From assembly GCF_003790525.1 (NCBI RefSeq), contig NZ_CP033635.1: a stretch of 64,000 nt of DNA; one strand, 5' to 3'. The stretch is from Escherichia coli (lineage in GTDB: Bacteria > Pseudomonadota > Gammaproteobacteria > Enterobacterales > Enterobacteriaceae). This document shows positions 2,757 to 36,882 of the stretch, in pieces. The notes below the pieces were generated by a model. That model was not told where the DNA came from, did no database searches, and was given only the letters and a program-made list of their open reading frames with translations. Both the position numbers and the translations under genes were made by a program. Each line of letters opens with the position of its first letter. Within the stretch, counting starts at the first letter, position 1.

Positions 2757-3203
2757 ATGTTTGATGTCACTTTGCTGATCCTGCTCGGGTTAGCTGCGCT
2801 GGGCTTTATCAGTCATAACACCACTGTCGCCGTTTCAATTCTGGTGTTGATCATTGTCCGCGTCACACCGTTAAGCACCTTTTTCCCGTGGATTGAAAAA
2901 CAGGGGCTAAGTATCGGGATAATCATTCTGACGATTGGCGTTATGGCTCCCATCGCCAGCGGGACGCTACCGCCCTCAACCCTGATTCACTCATTTCTGA
3001 ACTGGAAATCGCTGGTGGCAATTGCAGTCGGCGTTATTGTCTCCTGGCTGGGGGGGCGCGGCGTGACGTTAATGGGCAGCCAGCCGCAACTGGTCGCCGG
3101 GCTGCTGGTGGGCACTGTTTTAGGCGTGGCGCTGTTTCGCGGCGTACCGGTTGGCCCGCTTATTGCCGCGGGTCTGGTTTCGCTGATTGTGGGGAAACAG
3201 TAG
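2757..3203 (+). CDS. yeaL: UPF0756 inner membrane protein YeaL, 148 aa
   Basis: Full-length ORF; highly hydrophobic multi-TM protein; conserved position. Confidence 0.92.
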
Positions 3204-19946: not shown

Positions 19947-21857
19947 TTACCTGGAGGATGGTATCGCAAGGAAGCGAACCGCACGGGCAATGTCACGGGT
20001 GCGCGGCGCGGGCGGCAGACTGGCGAGAAACGTCGCGCCGTAAGGGCGCATCACCAGCCGATTGTCACAAATCACCAAAACCCCGCGATCGTCGGCGTCG
20101 CGAATCAGTCGCCCTACTCCCTGCTTGAGAGTAATCACCGCATCCGGTAGTTGTACTTCATCGAACGGGTCACCACCACGCAAACGGCAATCTTCCATGC
20201 GCGCTTTTAATAGTGGATCATCCGGTGAGGTAAACGGCAACTTGTCGATAATCACCAATGACAATGTATCGCCACGCACATCCACCCCTTCCCAGAAGCT
20301 GCTGGTTGCCACAAGAAGCGCGTTACCGGCGCTGACAAATTGCTGCAACAGTTGCCCTTTGCTGGTTTCCCCCTGCAACAAAACGGGAAGCGTCATGGTA
20401 GCGCGGAACTGCTCAGCCAGATCGCGCATCATGGCGTGCGAGGTACAAAGCATAAAACAACGACCGTTGTTAGCTTCGATGATCGGTCGCAACATTGCCG
20501 CCAGTTGCCGTGCGGAGCCCGGTTGATTGGTTTGCGGCAGGTTGCGCGGCACACAGAGTAACGCCTGGCGGCTGTAATCAAACGGGCTGGGTAACAGCAA
20601 CGACTCCGCCTGTTCGATGCCAAGCCGCGAGGTGAAATGATGCAGATCGTCGTTCACCGACAGCGTTGCTGAGGTAAAGATCCAGCTACCGGGTTTTTGC
20701 GCCATTAACTCTTTGAATTTATCCGCCACGCTGAGCGGCGTGAGTGCCAGAGTAAAATGGCGCGAAGTGCATTCGTACCAGTAGCTGTAGCCCGGCTGAT
20801 TGATCTCTTTTAGCCGTTTCAGCCGCGTGCGATACAACGTGGCGCGCTCAAATGCCGCATCCAGCAAAGCGGAACGCCCCAGCGACAGTTTCGCCACGTC
20901 ATAACAAAGTTCCAGGGTGTCATCGAGCAGTAAAAACGCCCGTTGAATTTGCGGATTAGCTAACAGTTCGCGCAGGTTGCCACGATAACCAGGCTCACCG
21001 AGTTGCAGACGAAAATCCTGCGCGCTCTGGGCAAGGCGGTCGGCGCACTTTTGTAACTGCTGGGTGTCTTTTAATTCGGTGCGGTAGGCGATGGTGATGT
21101 CTTTTGCCAGGTCGAGCAGTTGTCGACTGGAGAGTGACTGACCAAAATACTGGCTGGCAATGTCGGGCAGTTGGTGGGCTTCGTCGAAGATCATGACGTC
21201 AGCTTCCGGGATCAGTTCGCCAAATCCACTCTCTTTCACCACCATATCCGCCAGAAAGAGATGATGGTTTACCACCACCACATCGGCGTCCATCGCTTTT
21301 TTGCGTGCTTTGACCACAAAGCAATCTTTATACATCGGGCAGTCGCTGCCAAGGCAGTTATCGTTGGTGCTGGTGACCAGCGGCCACGCCTGTGAATCTT
21401 CCGCCACGCTGACGCAGGTGCTGATATCACCATCGACTGTTTGATTAGACCAGGAGCGCAGCAGGATCACATCGCTTAAGATTTGTACCGGCAGATCGCC
21501 CCCCGCCAGCGCCTGCTGTTCGAGACGTTCGAGGCAGAGGTAGTTTGAGCGCCCTTTCAGCAACGCCAGGTTGCCCGTGTATTTCAATGCCTTTGAGACC
21601 GTTGGCAAATCGCGGCTGTAGAGCTGATCCTGCAACGCTTTTGAACCGGTCGAGATAATGACTTTCTTTTTCGCCCGCAGCGCAGGGGCCAGGTAAGCGT
21701 AGGTTTTGCCCGTACCGGTTCCGGCTTCCACCACCAGCGGCTGGCCTTTTTCTATCGCCTGGGTGACGGCTACCGCCATCTGTCGCTGTGGTTCTCGCGG
21801 CTTAAAGCCTGGTATCGCTTTCGCCAGCTGACCGTCTGGTGCAAAATCGTCCGTCAC
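19947..21857 (-). CDS. yoaA: DinG-family ATP-dependent DNA helicase YoaA, 636 aa
   Basis: Full-length ORF; Walker A (GTGKT), DEAH box (DEAH), Fe-S cysteine cluster. Confidence 0.95.
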   Translation of the reverse strand: MTDDFAPDGQLAKAIPGFKPREPQRQMAVAVTQAIEKGQPLVVEAGTGTGKTYAYLAPALRAKKKVIISTGSKALQDQLYSRDLPTVSKALKYTGNLALLKGRSNYLCLERLEQQALAGGDLPVQILSDVILLRSWSNQTVDGDISTCVSVAEDSQAWPLVTSTNDNCLGSDCPMYKDCFVVKARKKAMDADVVVVNHHLFLADMVVKESGFGELIPEADVMIFDEAHQLPDIASQYFGQSLSSRQLLDLAKDITIAYRTELKDTQQLQKCADRLAQSAQDFRLQLGEPGYRGNLRELLANPQIQRAFLLLDDTLELCYDVAKLSLGRSALLDAAFERATLYRTRLKRLKEINQPGYSYWYECTSRHFTLALTPLSVADKFKELMAQKPGSWIFTSATLSVNDDLHHFTSRLGIEQAESLLLPSPFDYSRQALLCVPRNLPQTNQPGSARQLAAMLRPIIEANNGRCFMLCTSHAMMRDLAEQFRATMTLPVLLQGETSKGQLLQQFVSAGNALLVATSSFWEGVDVRGDTLSLVIIDKLPFTSPDDPLLKARMEDCRLRGGDPFDEVQLPDAVITLKQGVGRLIRDADDRGVLVICDNRLVMRPYGATFLASLPPAPRTRDIARAVRFLAIPSSR

Positions 21858-21988
21858 ACTACCCCCTGTTGATTTGAACAGGGATTATGTCAGGATGAGG
21901 GCGCTTTCGCCAGTTGAAGTGGTGACGGCGACCTCACATTGTGGCAGTCTTTGCAGCACGAAAATGGAAGGATAATGAGGACAAAATG

Positions 21989-22333
21989 ATGACTATCGTT
22001 CGTATCGATGCTGAAGCCCGCTGGTCTGATGTGGTGATCCACAACAACACGCTATACTACACTGGTGTACCGGAAAACCTCGACGCCGATGCTTTTGAGC
22101 AAACCGCCAACACGCTGGCGCAGATTGACGCCGTGCTGGAAAAACAGGGCAGCAATAAATCGAGCATTCTGGATGCCACCATTTTCCTGGCTGATAAAAA
22201 CGACTTCGCGGCGATGAATAAAGCGTGGGATGCCTGGGTTGTCGCTGGTCATGCGCCGGTGCGCTGCACGGTACAAGCGGGTTTGATGAACCCGAAGTAT
22301 AAAGTTGAAATTAAGATTGTGGCTGCAGTGTAA
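21989..22333 (+). CDS. yoaB: RidA/YjgF-family protein YoaB, 114 aa
   Basis: ORF 21941..22333; ATG at 21989 gives 114 aa (MTIVRIDAEARW...). Confidence 0.9.
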   Translation: MTIVRIDAEARWSDVVIHNNTLYYTGVPENLDADAFEQTANTLAQIDAVLEKQGSNKSSILDATIFLADKNDFAAMNKAWDAWVVAGHAPVRCTVQAGLMNPKYKVEIKIVAAV

Positions 22334-22754
22334 GCTTTATCGAAGCATAATAAGTCAGACGATAATTTATCGATAATACTGGTCGGTTTTGCATAAATCG
22401 ACCAGAGATTAAGTTATTACTGTTGATGCTCCTGCTAATTCATTATTTATTTTTATAATTTCAATTTCATCTATAAAACTGGCTATATAAATAAACATAA
22501 CCATGCCGTTGTGTTCGCCCTCTGATTAGCAACTCTGGTTTTCTTTCTTAGCTGAACAATCTGGTTATAGCGTGAGAACTGACCGTTAATTTTCTCCCTC
22601 TTACTGGATAACACACCATGAGCTGCTACCTTTAAAACACCTGAATGTCAACAGGTTAACTCGTGCCATATCGTTATAATCCCTTTGATATTAGATGCAA
22701 ATTAAGGTCATATATAGCCTTATCGATAACATGGTTAATTTTAAGGATAAGAAT

Positions 22755-23054
22755 ATGCCTGCTGTAATAGATAAAGCCCTGGATTTCATTGGTGCCATGG
22801 ATGTATCAGCACCAACACCAAGTTCGATGAATGAAAGCACGGCGAAGGGAATCTTTAAATATTTGAAAGAACTGGGAGTACCCGCGAGTGCCGCTGATAT
22901 TACGGCGCGAGCTGACCAGGAAGGCTGGAACCCGGGGTTCACGGAAAAAATGGTTGGATGGGCAAAAAAAATGGAGTCTGGTGAACGCATTGTGATTAAA
23001 AATCCTGAATACTTTTCAACATATATGCAGGAAGAACTAAAAGCACTGGTCTAA
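22755..23054 (+). CDS. yoaC: DUF1889 protein YoaC, 99 aa
   Basis: ORF 22695..23054; ATG at 22755 (MPAVIDKALDF...) gives 99 aa; preceded by a 420-bp AT-rich intergenic region. Confidence 0.88.
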   Translation: MPAVIDKALDFIGAMDVSAPTPSSMNESTAKGIFKYLKELGVPASAADITARADQEGWNPGFTEKMVGWAKKMESGERIVIKNPEYFSTYMQEELKALV

Positions 23055-23083
23055 GTTAAATTTACATCAGCATAAATGGGTCA

Positions 23084-23120
23084 GGACGCTTTTAATCACA
23101 TATGAAAAGCGTCCTTTTTC
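23084..23120 (+). terminator. intrinsic terminator downstream of yoaC
   Basis: GGACGCTTTT-loop-AAAAGCGTCC followed by TTTTT. Confidence 0.7.
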
Positions 23121-23173
23121 TCACAATCAAATAATCATCGGCTTCTATAACGAAAGCGATACGGGTTAGTGTG

Positions 23174-23353
23174 TTACTCGTCTTCATCCTCAAAACGCGC
23201 CACGATTCGCTCGCCGGAATGGTTGGCACGCAGCTCTTCTGCCATCAACGCGATTGCCTGGCCGCTGCTCATCCCTTGAGCCATCAGTTCCTGGATCCGC
23301 TCGACAGCTTTTTGCTGCTGTTCATGGGTGAGTGAAGGTAAACCTGCAAACAT
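23174..23353 (-). CDS. yoaH: UPF0181 protein YoaH, 59 aa
   Basis: Minus-strand translation [59 protein letters not shown]; divergent from pabB. Confidence 0.85.
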
Positions 23354-23426
23354 TGTTAACTCCTGCTAAATTGTTGGCGCTAATTATTTCATGCTACCCG
23401 GCACATAGCCAGTAGAGTCAGGACTG

Positions 23427-24788
23427 ATGAAGACGTTATCTCCCGCTGTGATTACTTTACCCTGGCGTCAGGACGCCGCTGAATTTTATTTCTCACGCTT
23501 AAGCCACCTGCCGTGGGCGATGCTTTTACACTCCGGCTATGCCGATCATCCGTATAGCCGCTTTGATATTGTGGTCGCCGAGCCAATTTGCACTTTAACT
23601 ACTTTCGGTAAAGAAACCGTTATTAGTGAAAGCGATAAACGTACAACGACCACTGATGACCCGCTACAGGTGCTCCAGCAGGTGCTGGATCGCGCAGACA
23701 TTCACCCAACGCATAACGAAGATTTGCCATTTCAGGGCGGCGCGCTGGGGTTGTTTGGCTACGATCTGGGCCGCCGTTTTGAGTCACTGCCAGAAATTGC
23801 GCAGCAAGATATCGTTCTGCCGGATATGGCAGTGGGTATCTACGACTGGGCGCTGGTTGTTGACCACCAGCGTCAAACAGTTTCTTTGCTGAGTCATAAT
23901 GATGTCAATGCTCGTCGGGCCTGGCTGGAAAGCCAGCAATTCTCGCCGCAGGAAGATTTCACGCTCACTTCCGACTGGCAATCCAATATGACCCGCGAAC
24001 TGTACGGCGAAAAATTTCGCCAGGTACAGGAATATCTGCACAGCGGTGATTGCTATCAGGTGAATCTCGCCCAGCGTTTTCATGCGACCTATTCTGGCGA
24101 TGAATGGCAGGCATTCCTTCAGCTTAATCAGGCCAACCGCGCGCCGTTTAGCGCTTTTTTACGCCTTGAACAAGGCACGATTTTAAGCCTTTCGCCAGAG
24201 CGGTTTATCCTTTGTGATAACAGTGAAATCCAGACCCGCCCGATTAAAGGCACGCTACCACGCCTGCCCGATCCTCAGGAAGATAGCAAACAAGCAGAGA
24301 AACTGGCGAACTCAGCGAAAGATCGTGCCGAAAATCTGATGATTGTCGATTTAATGCGTAATGATATCGGTCGTGTTGCCGTAGCAGGTTCGGTAAAAGT
24401 ACCAGAGCTGTTCGTGGTGGAACCCTTCCCTGCCGTGCATCATCTGGTCAGCACCATAACGGCGCAACTACCAGAACAGTTACACGCCAGCGATCTGCTG
24501 CGCGCGGCTTTTCCTGGTGGCTCAATAACTGGGGCTCCGAAAGTACGGGCTATGGAAATTATCGACGAACTGGAACCGCAGCGACGCAATGCCTGGTGCG
24601 GCAGCATTGGCTATTTGAGCTTTTGCGGCAACATGGACACCAGCATTACTATCCGCACGCTGACTGCCATTAACGGACAAATTTACTGCTCTGCGGGGGG
24701 TGGAATTGTCGCCGATAGCCAGGAAGAAGCGGAATATCAGGAAACTTTTGATAAAGTTAATAAGATATTACGCCAACTGGAGAAGTAA
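23427..24788 (+). CDS. pabB: aminodeoxychorismate synthase component I PabB, 453 aa
   Basis: Full-length ORF; chorismate-binding enzyme family. Confidence 0.95.
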   Translation: MKTLSPAVITLPWRQDAAEFYFSRLSHLPWAMLLHSGYADHPYSRFDIVVAEPICTLTTFGKETVISESDKRTTTTDDPLQVLQQVLDRADIHPTHNEDLPFQGGALGLFGYDLGRRFESLPEIAQQDIVLPDMAVGIYDWALVVDHQRQTVSLLSHNDVNARRAWLESQQFSPQEDFTLTSDWQSNMTRELYGEKFRQVQEYLHSGDCYQVNLAQRFHATYSGDEWQAFLQLNQANRAPFSAFLRLEQGTILSLSPERFILCDNSEIQTRPIKGTLPRLPDPQEDSKQAEKLANSAKDRAENLMIVDLMRNDIGRVAVAGSVKVPELFVVEPFPAVHHLVSTITAQLPEQLHASDLLRAAFPGGSITGAPKVRAMEIIDELEPQRRNAWCGSIGYLSFCGNMDTSITIRTLTAINGQIYCSAGGGIVADSQEEAEYQETFDKVNKILRQLEK

Positions 24789-33422: not shown

Positions 33423-33881
33423 ATGACAATCACGGACCTGGTACTGATTCTTTTCATCGCCGCACTCCTGGCCTTCGCGATCTACGATCAGTTCATCATG
33501 CCCCGCCGTAACGGCCCCACTCTGCTGGCAATTCCTTTGCTCCGGCGTGGTCGCATCGATAGCGTTATATTCGTCGGATTGATTGTCATTCTTATCTATA
33601 ACAACGTCACGAATCATGGCGCGCTAATAACAACATGGTTATTAAGTGCACTGGCTCTGATGGGTTTTTATATATTCTGGATCCGCGTTCCGAAGATCAT
33701 CTTTAAACAAAAAGGTTTTTTCTTCGCCAATGTCTGGATTGAATATAGCCGAATCAAAGCGATGAACTTGTCGGAAGATGGCGTGTTGGTGATGCAATTA
33801 GAACAACGTCGGCTGTTAATCCGCGTTCGAAATATCGACGATCTGGAAAAAATTTATAAGCTTCTCGTTTCAACTCAATAG
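33423..33881 (+). CDS. yobD: UPF0266 inner membrane protein YobD, 152 aa
   Basis: Full-length ORF; RBS GGAGG upstream. Confidence 0.92.
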
Positions 33882-34084
33882 GTTATGAATTTAGCCAAAG
33901 CTATGTTTAGTGTATTTTTAATAATCAGACATAGCTTAGGCTATATTACCTCTTCCCTTATTTGTTATTTATTTTAACGTTTCATTGATATATAAATCTA
34001 AATGAAAATCGTTATCAATAAAGTGATGAAATAATATATTCCAACAGTTGTTTTATATTCTCAAAATATGTTAAGGTTGCGCCC

Positions 34085-34215
34085 TCATTTGGGGAGTAGC
34101 CGATTTCCAGATTCCGGAAATGTACGTGTCAACATACTCGTTGCAAAACGTGGCACGTACGGACTGAACACTTTCAGTCAGGCGAGACCATATGCACATC
34201 AATCGCTATGCCTGC
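34085..34215 (+). promoter_or_regulatory. Mn2+-sensing yybP-ykoY riboswitch in the mntP 5' leader (approximate bounds)
   Basis: Conserved UUGGGGAGUAGC (34090..34100) and ACAUACUCGUUGCAAAACG / CAGGCGAGACC elements within a roughly 230-nt leader upstream of mntP; mntP is known to carry this riboswitch. Confidence 0.7.
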
Positions 34216-35682: not shown

Positions 35683-35775
35683 GACAACTCCGGCAGGATA
35701 CTAAAGGCCGCAAGTGTAACGCGAATCACGCGGCGGGCAAATATCCGAACGCCAGGAGCGAAGATAAAGCAAAGT

Positions 35776-35803
35776 AAAAAGCCTCGCATTCGGCGAGGCT
35801 TTA
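35776..35803 (-). terminator. intrinsic terminator downstream of cspC
   Basis: Minus strand AAAGCCTCGCC-GAAT-GCGAGGCTTT followed by TT. Confidence 0.7.
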
Positions 35804-35847
35804 TAGCGAGATTGAAGCGTATTCACACTTCAGATCAGTGGATTCGA

Positions 35848-36057
35848 TCAGATAGCTGTTACGTTAACAGCTGCCGGACCTTTCTGGCCGTCCTGAATTT
35901 CGAACTCAACGTTCTGACCTTCAGCCAGAGTTTTGAAGCCATTACCCTGGATAGCGGAGAAGTGTACGAACACGTCTTTGCTGCCATCAGCCGGAGTAAT
36001 GAAGCCAAAACCTTTAGACTCGTTGAACCACTTAACCTGACCTTTAATCTTTGCCAT
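35848..36057 (-). CDS. cspC: cold shock-like protein CspC, 69 aa
   Basis: Full-length ORF; [22 protein letters not shown]... with RNP motifs. Confidence 0.97.
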
Positions 36058-36069
36058 TTGAAAAATTCC

Positions 36070-36213
36070 TTAGATTGTTTTCTTCGCCCGCAGGCATAAC
36101 ATAGATAAAACTGACACATTACTGCATGAGGCACCAATATAAGGCTCGGCAGAGAAGCGGTATTCAACGTCAACGTGTTTACTCAGGACTTCTTTACTGA
36201 AAATGCCACACAT
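36070..36213 (-). CDS. yobF: small protein YobF, 47 aa
   Basis: Minus-strand translation [47 protein letters not shown]; ends 12 nt upstream of cspC (yobF-cspC operon). Confidence 0.82.
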
Positions 36214-36882
36214 AAACAGAACTGTACCTCGTTTAACCCGAAATCTGTTATCACATACAACGTTAATTATGGCAAGCCATTTTTAAACATGTCTCGATCA
36301 GACGCACAAATCTCGATACGTCTTCCACTTTTTTTGCACACTTATGCAACGGAATACGCGCCGATATATCATTGTGCTTAACCTTGCCAGTTCAGGCAGA
36401 TACTTAAACTGACGTATTTTCTAACATAGTTCAATAAGTTCAGTTGTTCCATGCCAATGGGAGAAGTTATTACATAGTGCGTGCAATATCACATTTTCTG
36501 CTATGCAATGAATAAAAAGTTATATCACTTTTTCTCATAAAACAGTCAGTTAACGGCCATCAATCACCCCAAAGAGAAGTCAATCGCCAAAGGTATTGTA
36601 AATTTAAAATAAGAAAAATTGATGAATGCGCAAAAAAATCAAGAGAGAAACGTTTCGCTAATAAATAATACCACGCTTAATCACAAATCCGATGTAAACA
36701 TCCTAATAAATTAATGGGCTAAATATCTTTTTCTGATATCCCGTTACGCAAATAAATAATATGATAATTATTTGAAGTCAGACCAGAGTTTTAATTTGAA
36801 GCAGTTGCACCATGACAGTGCGTATAATCAGGATGAATTGAGTAACCCTTCAACGACGGGGTTACTCAAGATTGAGGAAGGA

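Follow-up and report, generated by a model that had tools for sequence, protein, structure and literature searches.

Composite regulatory DNA probably fills the AT-rich spacer between yoaB and yoaC in Escherichia coli

Introduction

The described systems closest to the DNA between yoaB and yoaC are the small, horizontally acquired AT-rich islets silenced by H-NS and activated by specific regulators (counter-silencing), as with Ler at the LEE or LuxR at quorum-sensing promoters. The yoaC segment resembles them in being low in GC and missing from the corresponding site of sister genera, in containing an exact H-NS nucleation motif, in the rapid turnover of its AT-rich part and in that a specific DNA-binding regulator binds a long way upstream of the promoter. 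At yoaC, H-NS occupancy and derepression are predictions. Compared with typical islets, moreover, the segment is tiny, with a single gene in E. coli; it has become fixed in the species and carries neither mobility genes nor repeats at its ends.

A second point of reference is provided by the promoters of the YhaJ regulon (yqjF, ybiJ, yhaK and yhhW). Like these, yoaC has a YhaJ peak in both EHEC and UPEC and appears on the known-regulated list of the authors who mapped it, and its core promoter lacks a –35 element, as expected of an activator-dependent promoter. LysR-type sites usually lie at about –65/–35. Unlike such sites, the YhaJ peak at yoaC is centered some 230–290 bp upstream of the start sites and, unlike the regulon promoters, the box assigned there fits only one half of TCAA-N5-TTGA.

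Two more comparisons concern parts of the spacer. The stem-loop behind yoaB is stable, conserved and compensated, with an RNA 3′ end 4 nt further on, as in E. coli terminators and 3′-end stem-loops; unlike intrinsic terminators, it has no U-tract in E. coli, and the RNA end was classified as an "orphan" by Term-seq. Finally, the spacer is AT-rich and lies upstream of a promoter, as does curved upstream activating DNA, but it lacks the 10–11 bp phasing of curved A-tract DNA and has only as many A-tracts as its composition predicts.

Here we analyzed the spacer within a 64 kb stretch of E. coli DNA (henceforth, the window). We consider it likely that the spacer is composite regulatory DNA, and not a gene, making up the upstream half of an acquired 840-bp segment. 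It is ordinary control DNA, the parts of which had largely been mapped already, and the significance beyond annotation is small. Still, an unlabelled 421-bp gap can be replaced by named parts (a yoaB 3′ UTR/terminator, an upstream region bound by YhaJ and YeiE, and a yoaC promoter/leader), and yoaC, a gene of unknown function, is placed in what appears to be an Escherichia-specific islet. The locus may thus serve as a small, tractable example of an imported gene wired to resident LysR-type regulators.

Results and Discussion

Composition and Origin of the Segment

The features discussed below are collected in Table 1; the conversion from K-12 to window coordinates was checked for the published start sites and RNA 3′ ends. 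With 22333 as the last base of the yoaB stop codon and 22755 as the first of the yoaC ATG, the spacer is 421 bp long. A preliminary description of this DNA had its coordinates exactly right but gave its length as 420 bp. Of 5426 complete E. coli genomes, 5411 carry the spacer. It bears no annotated feature in K-12 or among the E. coli matches listed, and neither a gene nor an Rfam family or mobile element was found within it.

Table 1. Features of the yoaB–yoaC region, in window coordinates
Feature	Position	Strand	Description
Low-GC segment	22334–23173		840 bp, GC 0.382; spacer, yoaC and bidirectional terminator
yoaB–yoaC spacer	22334–22754		421 bp, GC 0.340; unannotated; K-12 1893712–1894132
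yoaB 3′ UTR	22334–22409	+	76 bp, delimited by the Term-seq 3′ end
H-NS nucleation motif TCGATAAATT	22364–22373	–	Exact match; only exact copy in 64 kb
Weak minus-strand promoter	22366–22378	–	–10 TATTAT at 22378–22373, start 22366
Palindrome TTATCGATAA, copy 1	22367–22376		Perfect
Hairpin CTGGTCGGTTT-TGCAT-AAATCGACCAG	22379–22405	+	11-bp stem, 5-nt loop
YhaJ ChIP-seq peak centers	22395–22413		UPEC CFT073, replicates 1 and 2
AT-rich variable core	22410–22609		Contains the GC minimum, 22425–22499
LysR-type T-N11-A box, TTATAGATAAAATTGA	22462–22477	–	Assigned to YhaJ by the authors; one mismatch in the window strain
yoaC promoter-proximal module and 5′ leader	22610–22754	+	Conserved
yoaC transcription start site	22639	+	NC_000913.2 1892041 (+), 21 reads (Kim 2012 supplement)
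TATAAT hexamer, followed by conserved CCCTTTGAT	22675–22680	+	Perfect –10, no recognizable –35
Palindrome TTATCGATAA, copy 2	22720–22729		Perfect; inside the yoaC leader
Shine-Dalgarno AAGGAT of yoaC	22743–22748	+	Within near-invariant block GGTTAATTTTAAGGATAAGA; invariant across genera
yoaC	22755–23054	+	99-aa DUF1889 protein; Pfam PF08986, E = 1e-49
yoaC intrinsic terminator, AGGACGCTTTT / AAAAGCGTCCT then T4	23083–23120	+	Doubles as the yoaH 3′ end on the opposite strand

The spacer had been described as markedly more AT-rich than its surroundings, and computing windowed GC bore this out: its GC is 34.0%, that of the window 50.1% (and that of coding sequence 0.513), only 0.4% of the 421-bp windows in the 64 kb are as low, and just two non-overlapping ones are lower. 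The GC minimum of the spacer falls to 16–22%. Against intergenic DNA, which is the fairer baseline, the deficit is modest. Pooled over the 41 spacers of the first 50 kb, GC is 39.8%; several others lie at 33–37%, and the yoaB–yoaC spacer is the third lowest (binomial z about –2.4). More striking is its length: the median of these 41 spacers is 126 bp, and this one has 421 bp. The TATAA- and ATAAA-like tracts to which attention had been drawn do exist, with four copies each, but they barely exceed what composition yields (1.7 and 1.5, respectively, with an sd of 1.2, in dinucleotide shuffles).

Low GC extends beyond the spacer, through yoaC (0.447) and the yoaC–yoaH spacer (0.37), and therefore the true anomaly is the whole segment, set exactly between the stop codons of the convergent genes yoaB and yoaH, whose own GC is 0.51–0.54. 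At the syntenic site the segment is missing from Salmonella, Klebsiella, Citrobacter and Enterobacter, where the two stop codons are 5, 0, 7 and 6 bp apart, respectively. The synteny in these four outgroup genera, E. fergusonii being left out of the comparison, suggests an Escherichia-specific insertion. Homologues of yoaC do occur in Citrobacter, Buttiauxella and Lelliottia, in unrelated genomic contexts: the Citrobacter homologue adjoins genes for a diol-dehydratase reactivase and an aconitase-family protein, the Buttiauxella one adjoins fis-dusB. On this view, an ancestor of Escherichia would have gained the segment where the stop codons of yoaB and yoaH abutted, and the AT-richness would reflect both the acquired origin and the lack of coding constraint.

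Searches for a donor, an integrase or a target duplication of the segment found none. Distant blastn with the spacer and tblastn with YoaC matched, among plasmid records, only chromosome-sized or very large "plasmids" (0.4–5.4 Mb), all predicted to be non-mobilizable, and distant blastn found no phage relatives of the spacer. We also considered the spacer as a gene remnant and rejected this, given that tblastx, with yoaC loci from other genera as targets, aligned only the ~40–80 bp adjoining the ATG. The preliminary description had overlooked both the presumed insertion of the entire yoaC segment and the fact that the first 76 bp correspond to the yoaB 3′ UTR and terminator.

The 3′ End of yoaB

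Term-seq placed an RNA 3′ end on the plus strand at K-12 position 1893787 (window 22409); the Adams 2021 supplement calls it "orphan" and has it in two data sets. The stem of the hairpin listed in Table 1 ends 4 nt before this position. The 87-nt context of the hairpin has a folding energy of –22 kcal/mol, with z = –3.96 on the plus strand versus –1.71 on the minus strand; over seven Escherichia sequences, 92% of the hairpin cells are paired and two pairs show compensatory changes. As in intrinsic terminators, then, the stem-loop contains G+C and the RNA ends just beyond it. In E. coli, however, no U-tract stands behind the hairpin, where AGAGAUUAAG comes next, while a partial one (UGUUUUA) is present in the cryptic clades. 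A terminator scan of the spacer gave zero matches.

With no U-tract behind the hairpin in E. coli, the yoaB 3′ end may be processed or Rho-dependent rather than intrinsic. Irrespective of how the end arises, the hairpin is either the yoaB terminator or a stem protecting the 3′ end; in the scheme that we favor, the first 76 bp of the spacer are transcribed as the yoaB 3′ UTR, which stops just past this hairpin.

The Promoter and Leader of yoaC

That the spacer is a promoter region, as had been proposed, is supported by the mapped yoaC start site, by the conservation of the 145 bp beside the gene and by the reported binding of YhaJ and YeiE. This proximal module shows no difference from K-12 (0/145), versus 15/276 in the rest of the spacer, and 4471 of 5405 E. 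coli genomes (83%) match it at 99% identity or more. Its identity is 85–88% in four other Escherichia lineages and 72% in lineage L003, compared with 68–78% at third positions of the yoaB and yoaC codons. Furthermore, the last ~85 bp can be aligned with the DNA upstream of yoaC in Citrobacter, Lelliottia and Buttiauxella, despite the differing genomic contexts. By this pattern, the 145 bp are under purifying selection, and the ~85 bp of leader accompany yoaC in other genera.

The start at 22639 has a poor –10 element (TACCTT) and few reads, the yoaB start site having 448 in the same study (Kim 2012). The hexamer at 22675–22680 is a perfect TATAAT that six of seven Escherichia sequences share unchanged (lineage L005 has GATAAT), and the block behind it is conserved across genera. 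As we found no mapped start site for this hexamer, it is by inference that we regard it as a second or inducible yoaC promoter, with a predicted start near 22687; being devoid of a –35 element, it would probably require an activator. The proximal module may then combine this promoter with a weak constitutive start at 22639.

A hexamer scan revealed no strong sigma-70 promoter, its top plus-strand match being another TATAAT in the core (22454–22459), and a consensus promoter scan returned a single weak minus-strand site. The coordinates of the region had no match in the Cappable-seq supplement, and yoaC is unmentioned in the main text of Palevsky 2016. We also considered a structured leader RNA: the predicted fold sequestering the Shine-Dalgarno sequence and the AUG had z = +0.26, with no covariation.

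As to the gene itself, an older 119-aa version of yoaC, starting at an ATG at 22695, was rejected: in lineage L003 that ATG is lost and the extension is frameshifted, and in other genera the protein starts at MPA or MPT. Homologues of YoaC have solved structures (2ES9 and 2JN8), and boric-acid sensitivity has been reported for a yoaC deletion. At the downstream end of the segment, Term-seq 3′ ends lie at 23119/23120 on the plus strand and, very strong, at 23079 on the minus strand (Adams 2021 supplement).

H-NS and DNA Curvature

An alternative to the composite arrangement, one that builds on the preliminary description, is that the spacer is an intrinsically curved promoter region bound by H-NS and Fis and silenced by nucleoid proteins. 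We regard this as possible, though somewhat doubtful. The DNA is AT-rich and lineage-specific, and it contains the sequence TCGATAAATT, which is a high-affinity nucleation motif for H-NS (PMC7145609). The 10-mer is kept in place in K-12, CFT073, E. albertii and lineage L007, while its flanks are just 61–67% identical. Because of this exact and conserved motif, binding of H-NS to the spacer is plausible. The spacer does not appear in the supplementary listing of Higashi 2016.

The core of the motif, TCGATAA, also occurs, on both strands, within the two perfect TTATCGATAA palindromes, which bracket the AT-rich core and the promoter. The window holds exactly two copies of this palindrome, both in the spacer, whereas shuffles of the whole window are expected to contain 0.06 and none of 100 shuffles reached two. 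Copy 2 is perfect in E. coli only; in E. albertii, both copies carry a single mismatch.

The claim that the DNA is curved, by contrast, found no support. The AA/TT periodicity at 9–12 bp was below the shuffle mean (maximum Fourier power 0.51, versus 0.76 with an sd of 0.28; 83% of the shuffles were as high), the A-tracts showed no helical phasing, and their number (15) was practically that expected from dinucleotide shuffles (15.5). In a home-made wedge model, the mean curvature of the spacer ranked at the 29th percentile, so that overall it is straighter than average, although a local peak near 22380 reached the 99.6th percentile. Also at odds with a region governed by nucleoid proteins is the fact that its documented binders include specific LysR-type regulators. 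In the composite arrangement, which we prefer, H-NS would nucleate at TCGATAAATT, at the left edge of the core.

The AT-Rich Core and Its Regulators

The core is the fast-evolving part of the spacer. Across Escherichia lineages its identity is 38–59% (gaps counted), so that it evolves at or above the rate of third codon positions (68–78% identity in yoaB and yoaC); it is rich in indels and mostly deleted in lineage L003. It accounts for 12 of the 15 differences between window and K-12 in the spacer. Only 33 of 5404 E. coli genomes (0.6%) have a core at least 99% identical to that of the window, 4564 being 90–95% identical, and three strains have lost it through IS1 insertions and adjacent deletions.

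Such turnover, including the deletions, would be expected if the core were functionless filler of the insertion, its composition inherited or mutational, with the ChIP peaks and the weak starts reflecting promiscuous binding and spurious initiation. The low read counts of the two starts (12 and 21) and the weakness of the YhaJ box (see below) also agree with this explanation, which we nevertheless find rather unlikely. One reason is that the YhaJ peak recurs in two pathotypes and in each of the two replicates. In CFT073, the peak centers are at 2045445 and 2045463 (Connolly 2019 Table S4), which we transferred to the window via NC_004431.1, where yoaC starts at 2045805. In EHEC, the equivalent intergenic peak upstream of yoaC is fourth in the printed Table S3 of the same study (P = 8e-26 and 2e-99), beside the known targets yhhW, ybiJ and yqjF, and yoaC is named in the paper as a "known regulated gene". 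In addition, the conservation of the H-NS motif at the core's edge does not extend to its flanks.

The box assigned to YhaJ lies 162–177 bp upstream of the start at 22639. Scored with a TCAA-N5-TTGA matrix derived from the remaining reported YhaJ sites, it reached 4.7 bits (99.8th percentile of the window) and is therefore weak. The best matches in the spacer scored 4.7–6.2 bits, versus 14.3 for the best site of the window, and the scan detected no strong YhaJ site in the spacer. A second regulator is YeiE, reported from ChIP-exo to bind upstream of the RNA polymerase site; its activation of yoaC is presented in Gao 2018 Fig. 3B.

In the composite model, the core is a fast-evolving stretch to which YhaJ is cross-linked in vivo. 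For a distal effect of YhaJ on yoaC we would prefer counter-silencing to a classical contact with RNA polymerase. A more elaborate possibility, which we deem unlikely, is that the spacer works as a compact counter-silencing switch of the recently imported gene: with the TTATCGATAA pair bracketing the core and both yoaC starts, bridging by H-NS would trap the promoter, and YhaJ or YeiE, bound ~230–290 bp upstream, would break the bridge without touching RNA polymerase. In a variant of this switch, the true target of YhaJ would be the antisense promoter at 22366, directed through yoaB toward the DNA-repair helicase gene yoaA.

The Minus-Strand Start Site and Small ORFs

The start at 22366 (NC_000913.2 1891768, minus strand) was mapped with 12 reads in Kim 2012 (supplement), where it is attributed to yoaA with 509 nt of leader. 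A hexamer scan placed a minus-strand start at exactly this position, with a –10 matching 5/6. The resulting transcript would be antisense to yoaB and run toward yoaA, and the YhaJ peak center is at –29 to –47 relative to the start, better placed than for yoaC. The spacer might accordingly encode a small or antisense RNA overlapping the 3′ end or the whole coding region of yoaB, or else 22366 might be a distal yoaA promoter and the real target of YhaJ. We judge this improbable. The reads are just 12, the terminator scan found nothing that could end a short product, and the Term-seq tables contain, as far as their gene-name entries go, no minus-strand 3′ end near yoaB. The flanks are 61–67% conserved, the hairpin and the H-NS motif excepted. 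An Rfam scan of 21800–23500, with E up to 10, gave only chance-level matches to families of streptococcal sRNAs and eukaryotic snoRNAs, nothing inside the spacer being better than E = 2.4. Thus, of the unannotated small transcript suggested previously, the weak antisense start is what stands; the scans gave no Rfam match, second terminator or conserved small ORF.

An unannotated small protein gene is very improbable, since the candidate ORFs (31 and 43 aa on the minus strand, 34 aa on the plus strand) exist but none is conserved between lineages, both minus-strand ones fall in the core, with its many indels between lineages, none is annotated in the E. coli records inspected (K-12 included), tblastx similarity of the spacer does not go beyond DNA identity, and a further candidate, an upstream in-frame extension of yoaC, is broken in lineage L003.

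As a separate observation, the spacer is a recurrent landing site of IS1 and of Tn6330, the latter with mcr-1.

Composition and Context of the Spacer

The window is part of the Escherichia coli chromosome, and its yoaB-yoaC spacer (22334-22754) is 100% identical to that of strain AR_0077; the K-12 MG1655 counterpart (U00096.3 1893712-1894132) likewise spans 421 bp. With a GC content of 34.0% (50.1% in the whole window), the spacer is markedly AT-rich, as the preliminary description had it; just 0.4% of 421-bp windows have so little GC. The minimum, 16-22%, lies at 22425-22499. The excess is smaller relative to intergenic DNA, which averages 39.8% GC (41 spacers pooled from the first 50 kb of the window, whose annotated coordinates deviate by no more than 1 bp within the first 11 kb). 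Among these the spacer ranks third lowest, several others lying at 33-37%, and compared with other intergenic DNA its unusual trait is mainly its length (421 bp vs a median of 126). The TATAA and ATAAA tracts pointed out earlier do exist, four of each vs 1.7 and 1.5 (sd 1.2) in shuffles, and the A-tract count equals the shuffled expectation. Given this count and the smaller excess over intergenic DNA, we regard the observation as real but largely a matter of base composition.

Two 421-bp stretches of the window are AT-richer. The most extreme (36397-36817, 31.8% GC) lies in the yobF-yebO spacer, at 669 bp the longest of the first 50 kb, and an Rfam cspA-type thermoregulator match (35773-36233, minus strand) is found just downstream of it. 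In or beside the other (33658-34078) are a Mn2+ (yybP-ykoY) riboswitch upstream of mntP (34083-34179, plus strand) and, next to this, a long inverted repeat (33877-33959) with microRNA-like matches on both strands. The riboswitch scored 41.9 bits, just under the Rfam gathering score of 45, and is therefore missed by a default Rfam scan.

An Escherichia-Specific Islet

yoaB and yoaH converge in all four yoaH neighbourhoods compared (Salmonella, Klebsiella, Citrobacter and Enterobacter), with 5, 0, 7 and 6 bp, respectively, between their stop codons. In Escherichia, 840 bp (GC 0.382) lie exactly between these stops. Homologues of yoaC (68-76% identity) occur at unrelated loci in Citrobacter (flanked by genes for a diol-dehydratase reactivase and an aconitase-family protein), Lelliottia and Buttiauxella (beside fis-dusB); the gene has a higher AT content than its surroundings at the Citrobacter and Lelliottia loci, a contrast that is weak in Buttiauxella. 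Conservation across genera reaches only ~85 bp upstream of the yoaC ATG. Since the remaining ~335 bp of the spacer are Escherichia-specific and the yoaB and yoaH stops abut in the other genera, the AT-rich spacer is, judged from these loci, part of a small lineage-specific islet.

An Escherichia cryptic clade and E. whittamii carry a 150-aa pentapeptide-repeat gene between yoaC and yoaH, of which E. coli retains a remnant of ~24 bp aligning to the gene's 5' end (23150-23173). The ancestral islet thus probably carried two genes, with a deletion of ~450 bp in E. coli.

Coordinates of genes, islet and insertion points (window positions unless a comparison locus, L004 etc., is named)
Feature	Position	Strand	Remarks
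yoaA	19947-21857	-	
yoaB	21989-22333	+	
Islet	22334-23173		AT-rich spacer, yoaC, terminator
yoaC	22755-23054	+	
yoaH	23174-23353	-	
pabB	23427-24788	+	
Pentapeptide-repeat gene	L004 3390-3842; same place in L005	-	Pfam PF00805, E = 2.5e-20
IS1 insertion points	~22414, 22452, 22673		loci L030, L033, L032

Three Modules under Different Constraint

We aligned the spacers of E. coli (window and K-12) and five other Escherichia lineages and scored identity per module. In module 3 (22610-22754), identity is 85-88% for four lineages and 72% for Escherichia sp. MOD1-EC7003; at third codon positions of yoaB and yoaC, the four diverged lineages show 68-78%. Module 2, the AT-rich core (22410-22609), is only 38-59% identical, with many indels, and is mostly deleted in MOD1-EC7003. 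Outside a hairpin and a single 10-mer, module 1 (22334-22409) is 61-67% identical. The window and K-12 are separated by 15 differences, all of them within 22348-22598 and none within 22599-22754. Among ~5400 E. coli genomes, 83% match module 3 of the window at 99% identity or higher, and 0.6% do so for module 2 (84% are 90-95% identical there).

In MOD1-EC7003 (locus L003, 2730-3000) the spacer measures only 271 bp, lacks most of the core and has flanking modules 64-72% identical to ours, between yoaB and yoaC genes that are 97-98% identical at the DNA level. The spacer allele is divergent here and the genes on either side are E. coli-like, which suggests local replacement or recombination.

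Module 1 holds the 3' end of the yoaB mRNA. Its hairpin, CTGGTCGGTTT-TGCAT-AAATCGACCAG (22379-22405), has an 11-bp stem retained in all seven sequences, with compensatory changes at two pairs; the 87-nt context folds at -22 kcal/mol, with z = -3.96 on the plus strand and -1.71 on the minus strand. Two Term-seq data sets contain a plus-strand RNA 3' end, labelled "orphan", at K-12 1893787 (Adams et al. 2021, PMC7815308), which maps to 22409, 4 nt past the stem, so that transcripts stop at the hairpin. As no U-tract follows the stem in E. coli, the RNA may terminate intrinsically here, or the stem may shield the 3' end or mark where a Rho-dependent end has been trimmed back.

Module 3, the constrained part of the spacer, is where yoaC transcription begins. 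A start site at NC_000913.2 1892041 (plus strand, 21 reads; 448 reads for the yoaB start site at window 21958) has been published (Kim et al. 2012, PMC3415461) and maps to 22639, in keeping with the earlier description of a promoter region. Its -10 element, TACCTT, is poor. A perfect TATAAT, invariant in six of seven Escherichia sequences, lies 36 bp downstream (22675-22680) and is followed by CCCTTTGAT; both CCCTTTGAT and the Shine-Dalgarno stretch GGTTAATTTTAAGGATAAGA are conserved in Citrobacter, Lelliottia and Buttiauxella despite the different neighbours. The stretch conserved across genera (22669-22754; ~2915-3000 in the comparison loci L008-L021) contains CTTTGAT, which follows the -10 position, as well as the 20-nt block around the Shine-Dalgarno sequence; by this comparison it exceeds the needs of a ribosome-binding site. 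From the conserved TATAAT and the cross-genus blocks we infer a second, -35-less promoter, probably activator-dependent, with a predicted start near 22687, which has no counterpart among the mapped start sites. A predicted leader fold burying the Shine-Dalgarno sequence and AUG was discarded (z = +0.26 vs shuffles, no covariation).

At the other end of yoaC, Term-seq places plus-strand 3' ends at 23119-23120 and a very strong minus-strand end at 23079, where yoaH uses the yoaC terminator hairpin in reverse. Another minus-strand end, at 23019 inside yoaC, comes from a second supplementary table, which we take to be the bicyclomycin (Rho) comparison. These minus-strand ends imply that yoaH transcripts run antisense into the 3' end of yoaC.

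Regulators and Possible Silencing

Published data place both YhaJ and YeiE in the spacer region. In ChIP-exo the binding site of the LysR-type regulator YeiE at yoaC lies upstream of that of RNA polymerase, and the authors chose this gene to illustrate activation from an upstream position (Gao et al. 2018, PMC6237786). yoaC is also listed among the known YhaJ-regulated genes, with intergenic ChIP-seq peaks in EHEC (P = 8e-26, 2e-99) and UPEC and a reported box, TTATAGATAAAATTGA (Connolly et al. 2019, PMC6765310). This box, the reverse complement of 22462-22477 with one mismatch in the window strain, scores only 4.7 bits with a TCAA-N5-TTGA matrix from other reported sites, so the evidence for YhaJ is the ChIP signal and not the box. 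Across the window, the matrix scores highest (14.3 bits) at TCAATGCCTTTGA (21584-21596), which is part of the coding sequence of yoaA and some 800 bp away from the peak centre. Mapped through CFT073, the UPEC peak centres fall at 22395 and 22413. Their upstream distance is 226-244 bp from the mapped yoaC start (22639) and about 275-290 bp from the predicted start, which would be too far for classical LysR-type activation.

The spacer had been proposed to be a curved, H-NS/Fis-bound region. Curvature did not hold up: shuffled sequences show, on average, stronger AA/TT periodicity at 9-12 bp, and mean curvature is at the 29th percentile, with a single local peak near 22380, in a wedge model with unvalidated parameters. 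The H-NS part, taken as originally proposed, we rate as tentative, somewhat short of an even chance. The published high-affinity nucleation motif TCGATAAATT (cited in PMC7145609) has a single exact match in the 64 kb, on the minus strand at 22364-22373. K-12, CFT073, E. albertii and a further lineage retain it in this position, amid diverged flanks. It overlaps a perfect 10-bp palindrome, TTATCGATAA (22367-22376), whose only other copy in the 64 kb is in the yoaC leader (22720-22729; two copies vs 0.06 expected, a number reached in none of 100 shuffles). The copies, 353 bp apart, bracket the core and the yoaC start sites, and both are perfect only in E. coli. The exact, conserved motif and the paired palindromes make H-NS nucleation at the spacer reasonable to infer, possibly with bridging across the promoter.

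Sequence and published data identify the spacer as composite regulatory DNA of an imported islet. H-NS would nucleate at the conserved TCGATAAATT and then coat the AT-rich core; distal YhaJ or YeiE binding would raise yoaC expression mainly by antagonising this silencing; and the predicted TATAAT promoter would be the inducible one. Taken as a whole, with silencing and antagonism included, we think this mechanism rather likely. Neutral filler in the core, with the weak start sites arising by spurious initiation in AT-rich DNA, appears unlikely. More doubtful still is that position 22366, where a minus-strand start site (NC_000913.2 1891768, 12 reads) has been mapped (Kim et al. 2012, PMC3415461), marks a genuine antisense RNA or a distal promoter of yoaA; the YhaJ peak lies only 29-47 bp upstream of it. 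A hidden small-protein gene is highly improbable, as candidate ORFs of 31, 43 and 34 aa have no protein-level similarity and the two on the minus strand also sit in indel-rich sequence.

Translated comparison of the spacer with related loci found no similarity, an Rfam search gave no credible match, and scans for consensus terminators and strong sigma-70 promoters found none. A phage search returned no match, and all matches of a plasmid search were to records that are filed as plasmids but are as large as chromosomes or very large. No feature is annotated in the spacer in K-12 or among the E. coli matches listed. Overall, the observation stands, its first interpretation holds in part, and the feature is ordinary: genome annotation lacks its functional pieces, but public genome-wide surveys already contain them, and what we add, the islet origin and the pair of palindromes, is minor.

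Distribution and Disruption of the Spacer

The spacer is carried by 5411 of 5426 complete E. coli genomes and is not fully covered in ~1%. IS1 has inserted in it at different points in three unrelated E. coli strains (D72, ANT and FDAARGOS_944), each time with an adjacent deletion that removed the spacer partly or wholly and, in two strains, yoaC partly or wholly. One paper describes Tn6330 (mcr-1) and IS1 between yoaB and yoaC in strain PT62.
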